Shown here one piece after another: positions 11,827 through 54,325 of a DNA stretch of 55,135 nucleotides. This DNA comes from a virus. The position numbers and the translations under genes were made by a program. Under the pieces are notes generated by a model, which saw nothing but the letters and a program-made list of their open reading frames with translations, was not told the DNA's origin and searched no databases. The stretch lies in UHGV virus genome UHGV-0258472. The stretch is one strand, 5' to 3'. How positions within the stretch are numbered: the stretch's first letter is position 1; each line of letters opens with the position of its first letter.

Positions 11827-11924
11827 ATATCACCTCATATGGTATTCAATAAACCATCTAACAAATAAACATAAAGCAATAAACCCCCAACAAATGCACA
11901 TAAATAGCAATGTGTCGTCCATTG

Positions 11925-13390: not shown

Positions 13391-13653
13391 ACGCCGAACA
13401 TCCCATTCAATCCGGCGAACAATTTCCGCCAGTGGTCTTCAACATAAGCCCGGAACGGCTTAACGCGAACATTGCGGGCCTTCAGTTCAATCTTGTCAAA
13501 GAAGATCGGCTCTATAATTGTTCCGTCCAGGTATTTAACAAGGATCGGGCGCTCAAGATCGTTATATGCTTTATTCAGCACGACCAGCCCAGGGTCACTA
13601 CGATATGCGGGCAAAACAACGAGATCACCAGCTTTTGCATTCCACGGAGTCAT
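13381..13653 (-). CDS. hypothetical protein (90 aa)
   Basis: ATG at 13653 with SD aaggggtga. Confidence 0.45.
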   Translation of the reverse strand: MTPWNAKAGDLVVLPAYRSDPGLVVLNKAYNDLERPILVKYLDGTIIEPIFFDKIELKARNVRVKPFRAYVEDHWRKLFAGLNGMFGVWL

Positions 13654-13772
13654 AACATCACCCCTTTACCAATAAGGGCAATCACCGCCGCCAGTGCGCC
13701 ACAAAAGACAACCGTAAACAGGAAGCAAATAACGCAAAACGCGACCGTTACAATATCCTTACTGACTTTCAT
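13650..13772 (-). CDS. small hydrophobic membrane peptide (40 aa)
   Basis: ATG at 13772 after SD gagg; stop overlaps next start (ATGA). Confidence 0.4.
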   Translation of the reverse strand: MKVSKDIVTVAFCVICFLFTVVFCGALAAVIALIGKGVML

Positions 13773-13780
13773 AATTAGCC

Positions 13781-13894
13781 TCACATATTAGTAATCAGTT
13801 TTATGATCGCCACCGTAATATAAAGCGATACGCTGAGATACAGCACCGCCACCGCTACCGCCGCAAGCAATGCGGCAATTTTTGCAAGATTCAT
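13781..13894 (-). CDS. small hydrophobic membrane peptide (37 aa)
   Basis: ATG at 13894 overlaps upstream stop (ATGA); SD ggaggg. Confidence 0.4.
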   Translation of the reverse strand: MNLAKIAALLAAVAVAVLYLSVSLYITVAIIKLITNM

Positions 13895-51622: not shown

Positions 51623-52108
51623 TCACACCTCGTCTTCTACTTCCTGGACGATGCGGGCGATCTCTTCTTTCGTGACTTCAACCTGGACGGGCGCTTCTTC
51701 CTTGTTGCCGACGATCTCCTGTGTGACGCGTTCGCCGTATTTGCGCGGCTGAAGTTTTGCCAGTAGCCACTTGCGCGTTTCAATCATTAGTTGGTGGCGT
51801 CGCAACTGATCTTTATCTTCGTTCTCTGCTGCATCAGCCAGATCGATGATTTCATCAGCCAATACCTCGAAGCCGATCTCCTTCGCGCGCGCGTACATGA
51901 TCGAGAATTCCGGTACATCCCTAAACCATTTCAGGATTGTGGAACGGGTAGGCATACCAGGCATTTTCGAAATTTTATTAATACTCTGACCATCCGCCAC
52001 CAGTTCACAGATTTCTAATGCTTTTTCTTCGGTATAACCATGCGGACGGCCCACCTTTTTAGCGGCTGGCTTTTTATCGTCAGCCTTTGCCTTTTTAGTG
52101 CGGGCCAT
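51623..52108 (-). CDS. terminase small subunit
   Basis: 161 aa basic N-terminal HTH-like region, immediately upstream of terminase large subunit; ATG 52108 with SD gagaggtg. Confidence 0.7.
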   Translation of the reverse strand: MARTKKAKADDKKPAAKKVGRPHGYTEEKALEICELVADGQSINKISKMPGMPTRSTILKWFRDVPEFSIMYARAKEIGFEVLADEIIDLADAAENEDKDQLRRHQLMIETRKWLLAKLQPRKYGERVTQEIVGNKEEAPVQVEVTKEEIARIVQEVEDEV

Positions 52109-52118
52109 ATTTCACCTC

Positions 52119-52202
52119 TCAATATTTATTGATGATATATACGCAAGCAACAAAACTTGCACAGTATGTTAATACTTCCAACCAGTCGAATAATTCTTTC
52201 AT
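52119..52202 (-). CDS. micro-gene 10 of array: MKELFDWLEVLTYCASFVACVYIINKY
   Basis: ATG 52202 with SD aaggtga; in-frame upstream ATGs could extend it. Confidence 0.35.
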   Translation of the reverse strand: MKELFDWLEVLTYCASFVACVYIINKY

Positions 52203-52270
52203 TGTTGCCATCACCTTTACTTTACTTGCTGAATTTAGGAAGCGCATAAATTGCGCGTCCAAGCTATAAC

Positions 52271-52339
52271 CTATTGAGTTAGCGCGGTCATGGTAAGAAC
52301 AATAGCAACAATCAGGAAAAAGAAATCAAGCCATTTCAT
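52271..52339 (-). CDS. micro-gene 9 of array: MKWLDFFFLIVAIVLTMTALTQ
   Basis: ATG 52339 with SD aggag. Confidence 0.4.
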   Translation of the reverse strand: MKWLDFFFLIVAIVLTMTALTQ

Positions 52340-52355
52340 TTTTAACTCCTGCGAT

Positions 52356-52427
52356 TCAGTTAACGCTTAAAAGCACCGCAACGATGACGATCACTATAAT
52401 CATGCAAAAGAAGTCTGCTTCCCTCAT
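52356..52427 (-). CDS. micro-gene 8 of array: MREADFFCMIIVIVIVAVLLSVN
   Basis: ATG 52427 overlaps upstream stop (ATGA). Confidence 0.4.
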   Translation of the reverse strand: MREADFFCMIIVIVIVAVLLSVN

Positions 52428-52504
52428 CTTTTTAACCCTCGATAAAAATCAACGGCAATTACTGTAATAACAGCCACCAGCAATAGCATTTCGTATGCGT
52501 TCAT
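52424..52504 (-). CDS. micro-gene 7 of array: MNAYEMLLLVAVITVIAVDFYRGLKR
   Basis: ATG 52504 overlaps upstream stop (ATGA). Confidence 0.4.
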   Translation of the reverse strand: MNAYEMLLLVAVITVIAVDFYRGLKR

Positions 52505-52599
52505 TTGATGCTACCCATAACAAGACCAATGATGATGATTATGGCGACAATGCCTAACATCATTCCGCACATAATCGCCAGTAATTCGAATATATCCAT
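52501..52599 (-). CDS. micro-gene 6 of array: MDIFELLAIMCGMMLGIVAIIIIIGLVMGSIK
   Basis: ATG 52599 with SD aggtga; the ORF-track 67-aa version is a non-ATG upstream extension. Confidence 0.4.
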   Translation of the reverse strand: MDIFELLAIMCGMMLGIVAIIIIIGLVMGSIK

Positions 52600-52607
52600 G
52601 CCGTCAC

Positions 52608-52682
52608 CTATACAACATTCTTCCACCAGAAATAGATAATGACGGCGACCAACGACCACCAGATGAGATCGTAAATATTCAT
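52608..52682 (-). CDS. micro-gene 5 of array: MNIYDLIWWSLVAVIIYFWWKNVV
   Basis: ATG 52682 with SD-like aaggta. Confidence 0.4.
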   Translation of the reverse strand: MNIYDLIWWSLVAVIIYFWWKNVV

Positions 52683-52693
52683 GGTGAATACCT

Positions 52694-52768
52694 TCAGCTT
52701 TCAATGAATATCATGATCGCCAGCCATACAGCGACGCAGGCAGAAAGGATAATGAGCGGGTCAATCAT
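52694..52768 (-). CDS. micro-gene 4 of array: MIDPLIILSACVAVWLAIMIFIES
   Basis: ATG 52768 with SD ggtga, 4 nt after upstream stop. Confidence 0.4.
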   Translation of the reverse strand: MIDPLIILSACVAVWLAIMIFIES

Positions 52769-52772
52769 ATTT

Positions 52773-52847
52773 TCACCATAGCCTGTAAATGTTCACGCCA
52801 ATACCTATGATGAGCACAAATAACCAAATGAGATCGTAGGCATTCAT
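52773..52847 (-). CDS. micro-gene 3 of array: MNAYDLIWLFVLIIGIGVNIYRLW
   Basis: ATG 52847 overlaps upstream stop (ATGA). Confidence 0.4.
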   Translation of the reverse strand: MNAYDLIWLFVLIIGIGVNIYRLW

Positions 52848-52939
52848 GATTTGCTTTTTACAGTTATCAGTACAGCTATAATAAAACACACCAGGAATAC
52901 AGAAATGCCGATCAATCCGGCAATGATATAATCATCCAT
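52844..52939 (-). CDS. micro-gene 2 of array: MDDYIIAGLIGISVFLVCFIIAVLITVKSKS
   Basis: ATG 52939, 2 nt after upstream stop. Confidence 0.4.
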   Translation of the reverse strand: MDDYIIAGLIGISVFLVCFIIAVLITVKSKS

Positions 52940-52941
52940 AA

Positions 52942-53031
52942 TCAATCCTGCATAGACATAGCCACCAGAAACATGCAAAGAATGAATCCAGCCGCCATAC
53001 CGCCTATAAACGTTAATATTGATGCAATCAT
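52942..53031 (-). CDS. micro-gene 1 of array: MIASILTFIGGMAAGFILCMFLVAMSMQD
   Basis: ATG 53031 with SD ggggtga, 2 nt after stop of 53034..53576. Confidence 0.4.
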   Translation of the reverse strand: MIASILTFIGGMAAGFILCMFLVAMSMQD

Positions 53032-53033
53032 AA

Positions 53034-53576
53034 TCACCCCCGTTTAAAGCTCATAACACGAGGTACAAGCGCTTCTTTTGCTTTCGGCTTACGTTTGCCT
53101 TTCTTAGCTGGTTTTTTCTCTTCTTTCGGCTGTTCTGCCTGTTCTAATGCCTGCTCAACGACTTCAGCCGCCTGCATTGCTGCAACCTGTGCTTCGTTTG
53201 ATTCTGCCAGGATAGGGAAAAATGCATCAAAGATGCGGCCTACCATGTAAGCGTAAGTCTCATTCGCCGGATGAGATGGATCAGTGGTAGCCACGACGCC
53301 TACATCACTTAAAACATGGAATGTGGTGTGAGCGCATTCATGTACCAGCGTTCCTAACTCATTGTCGAATACTGCGATCACGTAGAAGTTACCGCCTTTC
53401 TCACCAGTGCAAGTAAGCGTCAATCCTCCTGCCAGTTCGAAATCAGGCTCAATTGGAATTCCTGCCTTTTCGCAAAATTCATAAAACATCTCGCGGGTCG
53501 GGCAAAAGAAAACGGTTGTATGCTCAAAGAGCGGTACTTTGAATTGAGGCAATTTAATGCCTTTAGCCTTAGCCAT
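53034..53576 (-). CDS. hypothetical protein with HExxH motif (HECAHTTFH) and Lys-rich C-terminal tail
   Basis: ATG 53576 with SD aggag; possible zincin-like metal site; function unknown. Confidence 0.5.
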   Translation of the reverse strand: MAKAKGIKLPQFKVPLFEHTTVFFCPTREMFYEFCEKAGIPIEPDFELAGGLTLTCTGEKGGNFYVIAVFDNELGTLVHECAHTTFHVLSDVGVVATTDPSHPANETYAYMVGRIFDAFFPILAESNEAQVAAMQAAEVVEQALEQAEQPKEEKKPAKKGKRKPKAKEALVPRVMSFKRG

Positions 53577-53854
53577 CAGAATAATCTCCTATTCTGAAAA
53601 ATATAACCCCCGCAAAACTCGACACCGCAGGGAGTGAAAACAGCTATAAAACACTGAAAACGGCGCTTAATCAGTACCGTTTCCAGAATTTTATAAAATT
53701 GGTGAATGGCGCTTTCTTCTACCCAGGTAGCGCCGACCTGTTAATGGGACTGTTGATCCGGTATTACGTGTTTTTGACTTTTCCGCCGTCGCTCGCGGGA
53801 AGGATTGGCCCGGTTATGGCTGGCTGGCGGAAACGGCGACACGTCCACGCGCTG

Positions 53855-54325
53855 TTATTCTTTGCGTATGCACTGCGTCTTGATGTAGTCCTGCAATCCG
53901 GTGATCTTCGCGTCTTTCTCTTTTAGTTGTTCTCTGAGGGATAGATAAGCCGATTCAGCGTCGGGAGTGAGTCTACAGGCGGCTCCATCAATGCTGCTGG
54001 CGGTTCCGGTGGCGTCTGACACTCGCACGGGTATTGCGTTGACGTGCAACCGGATAGCACCGCTATCAATACCAGCACGCAGATCAGCAATGTCAGATCT
54101 GATAGCTTTAATTTCATCGTGATACCTCTTATCAAGTTTTGACAGTTCGGCGTTTCGCTCCTTCATCTGCTGAATAGTGTTACTTGCTGTTTTTAGTGCG
54201 CCCTGCGTAGTAGTTAGCTCGCTTTGCATTGTGTTTATCACTGACTGGCAGTGACTAAGCGCGGCAACAAGCCCAACAACGACACAAACGATAGCGGCGA
54301 TGATTAACGTCTTCACCTTGTCCAT
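53855..54325 (-). CDS. Rz-like i-spanin
   Basis: N-terminal TM anchor, coiled-coil periplasmic domain; ATG 54325 with SD ggggtga; follows endolysin. Confidence 0.7.
53923..54117 (-). CDS. Rz1-like o-spanin lipoprotein embedded in Rz in the +1 frame
   Basis: ATG 54117 with SD aagaggt; lipobox LSGC, Pro-rich mature region; fully nested within Rz. Confidence 0.65.
   Translation of the reverse strand: MKLKLSDLTLLICVLVLIAVLSGCTSTQYPCECQTPPEPPAALMEPPVDSLPTLNRLIYPSENN

Follow-up and report, generated by a model that had tools for sequence, protein, structure and literature searches.

Small phage proteins are numerous and almost uncharacterised, and small membrane proteins with a single helix are a known kind. 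Among the closest described systems, the ldr/rdl and ibs/sib loci of Escherichia coli are tandem type I units, each with its own promoter, a structured 5′ untranslated region and an antisense RNA antitoxin. The psm-alpha peptides of Staphylococcus aureus, aureocin A70 (aurABCD) and garvicin KS are amphipathic, cationic peptides of Gram-positive bacteria with dedicated ABC transporters. On the phage side, Pf3 coat and M13 procoat are YidC substrates and virion proteins of filamentous phages, 44-73 amino acids (aa) long, and Sgl of the single-stranded RNA (ssRNA) phage M is a 37-aa inhibitor of MurJ and the sole lysis gene of a tiny phage. Bacterial small membrane proteins of 50 aa or less include YohP, YkgR, MgrB and AcrZ, and the known examples bind larger membrane proteins (PMC12648545). 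Here we describe an array of ten micro-genes, named A to J from 5′ to 3′, on the minus strand of UHGV virus genome UHGV-0258472 (52119-53031), between a gene for a protein with an HExxH motif and the gene for the small terminase subunit (terS); "the window" denotes the whole stretch of 55,135 nucleotides (nt) that was analysed.

We propose, with a probability of roughly 70%, that these are late-expressed, translationally coupled micro-genes whose products insert into the inner membrane and serve as accessory modulators by forming helix-helix contacts with membrane proteins of the host or the phage. The peptides resemble YohP, YkgR, MgrB and AcrZ in size range, in having one hydrophobic helix and their own Shine-Dalgarno (SD) sites, in being omitted by annotation, and in their presumed post-translational insertion via the signal recognition particle (SRP)/YidC/SecYEG. 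They share no sequence homology with these proteins, however, and whereas the latter are encoded by scattered, individually regulated chromosomal genes, the array chains 10-13 non-identical genes in a phage late operon with presence/absence polymorphism. Tandem genes for hydrophobic peptides of 18-35 aa are also found in ldr/rdl and ibs/sib, but the array has no detected promoter-like sites, its SD sites are open, its genes are coupled and its peptides match no family. Closest in gene architecture are psm-alpha and the leaderless bacteriocins, where one transcript encodes, head-to-tail, several leaderless peptides of 20-35 aa with individual SD sites; unlike these, the array peptides have uncharged cores of 15-30 residues, come without a transporter or immunity gene, and are phage late products. 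Pf3 coat and M13 procoat are likewise short phage proteins with an acidic N-tail, one helix, a basic C-tail and an N-out/C-in orientation (predicted from charge for the array), but the array peptides are half their size and belong to a tailed phage. Sgl provides a precedent for a one-helix phage peptide that specifically inhibits an integral membrane enzyme of the host, although there is no homology and the array phage has a full cassette of holin, endolysin and Rz spanin. Neither the literature searched nor the family libraries contained a description of a phage late operon in which about 21 micro-gene families, with products of 20-47 aa, form a chained, ordered pan-array with presence/absence polymorphism.

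Coding status of the ten micro-genes

Read as the reverse complement of 52100-53040, the interval contains ten ATG-initiated open reading frames (ORFs) of 22-32 aa each (Table 1), and the ten peptides that a preliminary description of this DNA had listed between the HExxH gene and terS were all recovered exactly as transcribed. From the HExxH stop codon through J, the gaps between consecutive genes are 2, 2, -4, 4, 11, 8, -4, -4, 16 and 68 nt, followed by 10 nt to terS. An SD-like motif precedes nine of the ten starts, in line with the description's statement that most have one; the exception is micro-gene C, which relies on its ATGA overlap with B. Such start/stop overlaps had been put at four, but we count three (B/C, F/G and G/H). 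Alternative gene models fared poorly: a 67-aa ORF starting with TTG that would swallow E is disfavoured by a ratio of nonsynonymous to synonymous variation (pN/pS) of 0.37 in the frame of E against 1.19 and 1.86 off-frame, and the upstream ATG that would extend J to 42 aa is out of frame or missing in relatives.

The density of these ORFs far exceeds chance. The 931-nt interval holds ten ATG ORFs of at least 20 aa with a Kyte-Doolittle hydropathy, KD(15), of at least 1.8, covering 861 nt, while 2000 dinucleotide-preserving shuffles gave a mean of 1.39 +/- 1.06 such ORFs (maximum 6) and a mean coverage of 181 nt. No ORF on the opposite strand of the interval meets the same thresholds. Codon position 2 within the array is 55% T, and the region overall is 35% T. 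SD-preceded hydrophobic ORFs of 18-50 aa number 18 in the whole window on both strands, and eight of these fall within the 0.94 kb of the array.

To compare relatives, 48 related loci fetched with a TerS query were combined with GenBank and RefSeq loci, yielding 45 distinct arrays. Pooled over these, the proposed frames gave a pN/pS of 0.267, compared with 0.995 for +1 and 1.32 for +2; in-frame values lay between 0.13 and 0.39 in each of the 16 families with at least three distinct sequences, and variable sites were distributed over codon positions 1, 2 and 3 as 136:89:244. Replacements are mostly swaps among I, V, L, M and F, and position 5-6 remains acidic. ORF lengths are nearly constant (D, 24 aa in 42 of 42 copies; K, 24 aa in 30 of 30; I, 22 aa in 40 of 41; G, 26 aa in 42 of 43), nearly all cassette copies start with ATG, and an SD-like 4-mer precedes 417 of the 456 starts (91%, against a background of 20%). 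Junction gaps across the arrays cluster at -8 to +17 nt. The preliminary description had named, as the pattern that would speak against coding, homologous regions that keep the nucleotides and lose the frames; the reverse is seen, with frames kept in 45 relatives and a synonymous bias in the proposed frames only. At similar pS, the flanking genes show a pN/pS of 0.105 (TerS) and 0.10 (HExxH), indicating that the constraint on the micro-genes is real but looser.

One could instead regard the ORFs as products of chance in a T-rich non-coding spacer, such as a packaging or regulatory region, or as remnants of a decayed larger membrane-protein gene, since the region is indeed T-rich, most records leave it unannotated, and exact matches in a collection of 15 billion proteins exist for only three of the ten peptides (A, B and F). 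That scarcity in databases is attributable to the length cut-offs of gene callers. Shuffled sequences never reached ten ORFs, the low pN/pS is confined to the proposed frames, the 45 arrays preserve starts, stops, ORF lengths and SD sites, and gains and losses involve exact, whole cassettes. Nor did the search for RNA features favour a non-coding role: Rfam at a permissive E-value returned nothing relevant in the array, and shuffled sequences fold as well as the small hairpin in the I-J spacer (z = 0.12). Chance or pseudogene fragments are thus effectively excluded, and the comparative data strongly support the ten ORFs as real protein-coding genes maintained by selection.

Table 1 Coordinates of the micro-genes and neighbouring features in the window, with the number of arrays (of 45) carrying each micro-gene family and its in-frame pN/pS
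Feature	Coordinates	Strand	Length	Sequence	Arrays	pN/pS	Remarks
Micro-gene A	53031-52942	-	29 aa	MIASILTFIGGMAAGFILCMFLVAMSMQD	11	0.33	2 nt past HExxH stop; SD GGGGGTGA; always 29 aa
Micro-gene B	52939-52844	-	31 aa	MDDYIIAGLIGISVFLVCFIIAVLITVKSKS	38	0.26	
Micro-gene C	52847-52773	-	24 aa	MNAYDLIWLFVLIIGIGVNIYRLW	9	0.15	ATGA overlap with B
Micro-gene D	52768-52694	-	24 aa	MIDPLIILSACVAVWLAIMIFIES	42	0.32	
Micro-gene E	52682-52608	-	24 aa	MNIYDLIWWSLVAVIIYFWWKNVV	32	0.37	
Micro-gene F	52599-52501	-	32 aa	MDIFELLAIMCGMMLGIVAIIIIIGLVMGSIK	21	0.14	
Micro-gene G	52504-52424	-	26 aa	MNAYEMLLLVAVITVIAVDFYRGLKR	43	0.26	ATGA overlap with F
Micro-gene H	52427-52356	-	23 aa	MREADFFCMIIVIVIVAVLLSVN	17	0.27	ATGA overlap with G
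Micro-gene I	52339-52271	-	22 aa	MKWLDFFFLIVAIVLTMTALTQ	41	0.13	SD AGGAG
I-J spacer	52203-52270	-	68 nt				Non-coding; site of K, L, H2 and M cassettes in other arrays
Micro-gene J	52202-52119	-	27 aa	MKELFDWLEVLTYCASFVACVYIINKY	45	0.25	Always the last cassette; terS ATG 10 nt downstream
Intrinsic terminator	55049-55031	-		ACCCGGCACCGCGCCGGGT			Strong; followed by T-run; 24 nt upstream of holin gene
Holin	55006-54806	-	66 aa				Upstream of lysozyme; homologues in loci L054 and L055 match PF16080
Lysozyme (longest ORF)	54885-54313	-					PF00959
Rz	54325-53855	-					PF03245
ORF embedded in Rz	53923-54135	-	70 aa				Other frame of Rz; lipobox-like ...VLSGCTS... (LSGC)
HExxH protein	53576-53034	-	180 aa				phrog_1365 (family without assigned function), E = 4e-31
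Small terminase subunit	52108-51623	-					Sf6 type; PF20901, E = 1.5e-36; large terminase gene next

Elsewhere in the window, further SD-preceded hydrophobic small ORFs were seen on the minus strand at 13650-13772, 13781-13894 and 11830-11922 (40, 37 and 30 aa; two of them adjacent), and these may represent additional unannotated small membrane proteins.

Order, content and distribution of the arrays

The cassettes of the 45 arrays were assigned to 21 families with products of 20-47 aa (A, A2-A6, B, O, C, D, E, N, F, G, H, I, K, L, H2, M and J), and these follow a fixed order without violation: A-type, B, O, C, D, E, N, F, G, H, I, K, L, H2, M, J. Between 3 and 13 cassettes (median 9) are present per array, in 38 different compositions. 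Families J, G, D, I and B are each carried by 38-45 arrays, and the rest are optional. The interval between the HExxH stop codon and the ATG of terS spans 319 to 1155 nt, and recognised hydrophobic micro-ORFs fill more than 80% of it in most arrays; where coverage is lower, genes have been inserted or gaps are longer. The C-terminal allele of G varies with the cassette that follows, ending in ...RG(L/F)KR before H or H2 and in ...RExKK before I. In four loci, a non-hydrophobic ORF of 48-54 aa (MVSNEELK...; for example L052 2826-2990) lies between J and terS and is the only recurrent non-membrane cassette in the interval.

Three paralogous groups can be recognised (C/G/E, H/H2/I and A2/A3), with peptide scores of up to z = 9.8 against composition-preserving shuffles, and repeats are also visible in the DNA (26 nt shared by C and E at 85% identity; 29 nt shared by H and I at 72%). 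Paralogy at both levels indicates that duplication and divergence contributed to the array, which bears out the earlier suggestion that it grew in part by duplication. Among more distant relatives, one whose HExxH protein is only 63% identical keeps D-E-G-I-K-L-J with near-identical peptides, and another has H2-J only.

The array region matches the mEpimmI coliphages mEp013, mEp010, mEp554, mEp044, mEp021, mEp515 and MagusPhagus, as well as prophages found in 35 of the 5426 complete genomes of E. coli; its identity to a prophage of strain UMNK88 is 98.9%. Members of the mEpimmI group are described as Nus-dependent, non-lambdoid and prevalent in the gut in the one genomic paper on the group, which makes no mention of the array ORFs (PMC11893012). 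The preliminary description had recognised no such array in described lambdoid phages; the group to which the array belongs is described as non-lambdoid. The stretch is blank in the mEp021 record and in the RefSeq entry of UMNK88, and PHANOTATE-based records call three to six longer ORFs across it, one of which, mEp013_68, corresponds by its coordinates to F extended upstream across E. Literature searches with the peptide sequences and with DUF3789 gave no match.

Searches of 2.9 million viral contigs with degenerate DNA patterns returned only contigs of this phage group for the J motif, and this group plus seven chance hits for the D motif. HK620 and CBW1004C, which also have Sf6-type terminases, lack the array and carry ordinary genes at that site. 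Two families occur outside the group. A homologue of A (MIASILTFMGGVAVGFIICLFIVIMSMRG) is present in phage FV3 at 96606-96692 (L053 2506-2595), where it occupies the 95 nt left unannotated between FV3_00129 and FV3_00130, and A-matching sequence is found in about 90 rV5-like Vequintavirus genomes, mostly unannotated. A homologue of M sits among the small genes of an unrelated 135.8-kb phage contig, with 70% identity to the query and 79% to the MagusPhagus copy; this contig had no megablast match among isolated phages. The occurrence of A and M as single genes in unrelated phages of about 136 kb indicates that the peptides are autonomous, exchangeable units that are not tied to lysogeny.

These patterns bear on the idea that what matters is continuous translation from HExxH to terS, for instance for protection from Rho polarity, for mRNA protection or for TerS dosage, with the peptides as by-products. 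The very tight junctions with their three ATGA overlaps, the universal presence of J abutting terS, and a cassette number free to vary as if no single peptide were needed would all fit such a role. On the other hand, purifying selection on the amino acids is frame-specific in all 16 families tested, and both the acidic N-tail and the hydrophobic core are conserved, whereas a purely translational device needs no uniform hydrophobicity. Moreover, A and M persist alone in unrelated phages, and the shortest arrays, in loci L055 and L024, have just two to three cassettes, so that 10-13 are not needed for coupling. We therefore consider this explanation very unlikely.

Probable late transcription and neighbouring genes

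Upstream of the array, the arrangement of terminator and holin gene matches the pR′-tR′-S layout of phage lambda, and such a layout implies that the late operon is subject to Q-type antitermination, in a group described as non-lambdoid. A simple consensus scan of 52100-53040, which may miss a weak or non-sigma-70 promoter, detected no sigma-70-like promoter on either strand. Given this layout and no detected internal promoter, the micro-genes are probably part of an antitermination-dependent late transcript. Terminator-like hits within the array are at chance level (five found, 3.7 expected).

Because the longest lysozyme ORF and the end of the holin gene overlap, the true start is probably an internal ATG; after this ATG, the Gly/Ala-rich, weakly hydrophobic N-terminus resembles that of a signal-arrest-release (SAR) endolysin. 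The 70-aa ORF embedded in Rz is likely to encode an Rz1-type o-spanin, judging from its lipobox-like motif. Between Rz and HExxH lies a gene-free gap of 280 nt (53577-53854, minus strand), where a simple scan flagged no terminator, although a rho-independent one is annotated at the equivalent position in the records of mEp021 and mEp013.

In all loci that keep the upstream flank, the array directly follows the HExxH gene, save in mEp013, where an HNH gene intervenes. Residues H79, E80, H83, H87 and E106 of its product are invariant. The protein matched no Pfam family and no PDB sequence, and its AlphaFold model (predicted local distance difference test score, pLDDT, 73) gave no Foldseek match in the PDB at E <= 0.001. 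A distant homologue bears an unverified depositor's label, "PolyVal metallopeptidase", and no detectable relationship was found to the "metallopeptidase" beside terS in CBW1004C (E = 0.12). The match between the HExxH protein of mEp013 and the copy in the window extended over residues 1-126 only. HNH endonuclease genes occur at varying sites in the relatives (L001 999-1484, which is mEp013; L054 1752-2273; L055 4250-4753), where they separate HExxH from the array, lysozyme from Rz, or TerS from TerL.

Predicted membrane insertion and candidate roles

An uncharged core of 15-30 residues is present in all families, with KD(15) values of 1.89-3.61 in the window, and the earlier claim of one hydrophobic helix-like segment per peptide agrees with the hydropathy of all ten. 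The flank on the N-terminal side of the core is net negative in 16 of the 21 families and never positive, while the C-terminal flank is mostly neutral or positive. The positive-inside rule provides the basis for deriving topology from charge, and together with this asymmetry it predicts an N-out/C-in orientation. Scans of the window peptides and most of the additional families against Pfam, PHROGs, NCBIfam and PADLOC produced only sub-threshold matches to transmembrane segments. Any likeness to DUF3789 (PF12664), itself a family without assigned function, is limited to the label of the UniRef cluster containing A, which itself gives no DUF3789 match, and to a match of A2 (E = 0.034, 14.3 bits) below the 22-bit gathering threshold of Pfam. 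Holins are typically at least about 60 aa long, with a charged C-terminal domain and an adjoining endolysin gene. Assignment to the holin or antiholin class was rejected, as the peptides have 22-32 aa and no holin-family match, and a separate 66-aa holin gene exists.

The peptides might also be membrane-damaging toxins, either similar to the type I toxins Ibs, TisB, ShoB and Ldr or cytolytic and bacteriocin-like, which would kill or permeabilise the host late in infection or act on neighbouring cells. Their size and hydrophobicity are like those of type I toxins, they are probably expressed late, from a position beside the lysis cassette, and the sequences of A and F contain GxxxG-type motifs. 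A type I arrangement is nonetheless not supported: the consensus scan of both strands provides no promoter-like site for an antisense RNA, no Rfam family matches, Pfam, NCBIfam and PADLOC contain no matching toxin family, and the strong, unsequestered SD sites and operon-coupled genes are unlike those of type I toxins. The cytolytic or bacteriocin class finds no support either, because the cores are uncharged rather than amphipathic or cationic, and the neighbours are HExxH and terminase genes only, with no exporter or immunity gene. In addition, the lysis genes of the phage already comprise a holin, an endolysin and an Rz spanin, together with the candidate embedded Rz1 ORF. Toxicity of this kind thus appears unlikely.

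Several observations have to be set against the proposal of coupled late genes for modulators of the inner membrane. The cores of E, G, I, J and C measure 15-17 residues, which is short or borderline for spanning a bilayer, and the hydrophobicity of E and J is only moderate (KD 1.89 and 2.18). Constraint on the micro-genes (pN/pS 0.27) is weaker than on TerS and HExxH, the pairwise comparisons behind these ratios are phylogenetically non-independent, and decayed copies are under-counted because family members were gathered by requiring an intact ORF. The possible blind spots of the promoter scan belong here too, as do two aberrant cassettes: a B-D read-through fusion of 60 aa (L040 2230-2412) and a degenerate G copy with a polar C-terminal half (L042 2521-2601). 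Occasional decayed or fused cassettes are consistent with the dispensability of individual cassettes.

Based on these features, we infer the following course of events. A late transcript would start upstream of the tR′-like terminator and extend through holin, lysozyme, Rz, HExxH, the array, terS and terL, and the cassettes would be translated serially, either from their own SD sites or by termination-reinitiation across junctions of -4 to +17 nt. Co-translational targeting by SRP needs about 45-50 aa, and small membrane proteins of E. coli are inserted post-translationally via SRP and YidC/SecYEG, or by mRNA targeting (PMC12648545). At 22-32 aa, the array peptides are too short for co-translational capture by SRP and are expected to be released first and then inserted post-translationally via SRP/YidC/SecYEG. 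In the membrane they would adopt the predicted N-out/C-in orientation, like a miniature Pf3 coat protein, and would most likely act by making helix-helix contacts with membrane proteins of host or phage origin.

The fast reshuffling of cassettes within a fixed order, together with the solitary occurrence of two families in unrelated phages of virulent type, points to an accessory, combinatorial set of late membrane modulators. Individual peptides appear to be dispensable, and the fast-changing cassette content looks like the signature of accessory or conflict genes. From the position and timing of the array, the leading candidate roles are control of holin triggering or of envelope events, or inhibition of host membrane proteins; the preliminary description had put forward membrane-targeting toxins, lysis-timing modulators or superinfection-exclusion peptides as candidates. 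A more far-reaching and doubtful possibility is that the locus is a hypervariable library of micro-proteins shaped by an arms race, in which each peptide of 20-47 aa counters or hijacks a different host membrane protein or sets holin timing. Targets could then tentatively be sought among transmembrane effectors of abortive infection, membrane proteases and transporters, with cassettes swapped to match the hosts met.

About 10% of the gene count of this phage lies within less than 1 kb, a stretch left blank or mis-called in GenBank and RefSeq. Since mEpimmI phages grow on E. coli K-12 and are reported to be prevalent in the human gut, the array is directly testable. If the locus is indeed a library of this kind, it would represent a new class of phage accessory locus, composed wholly of genes below annotation cut-offs. 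If the peptides target host membrane proteins, they would constitute a natural toolbox of minimal transmembrane binders, and the array would be a model for the birth, duplication and exchange of micro-genes.

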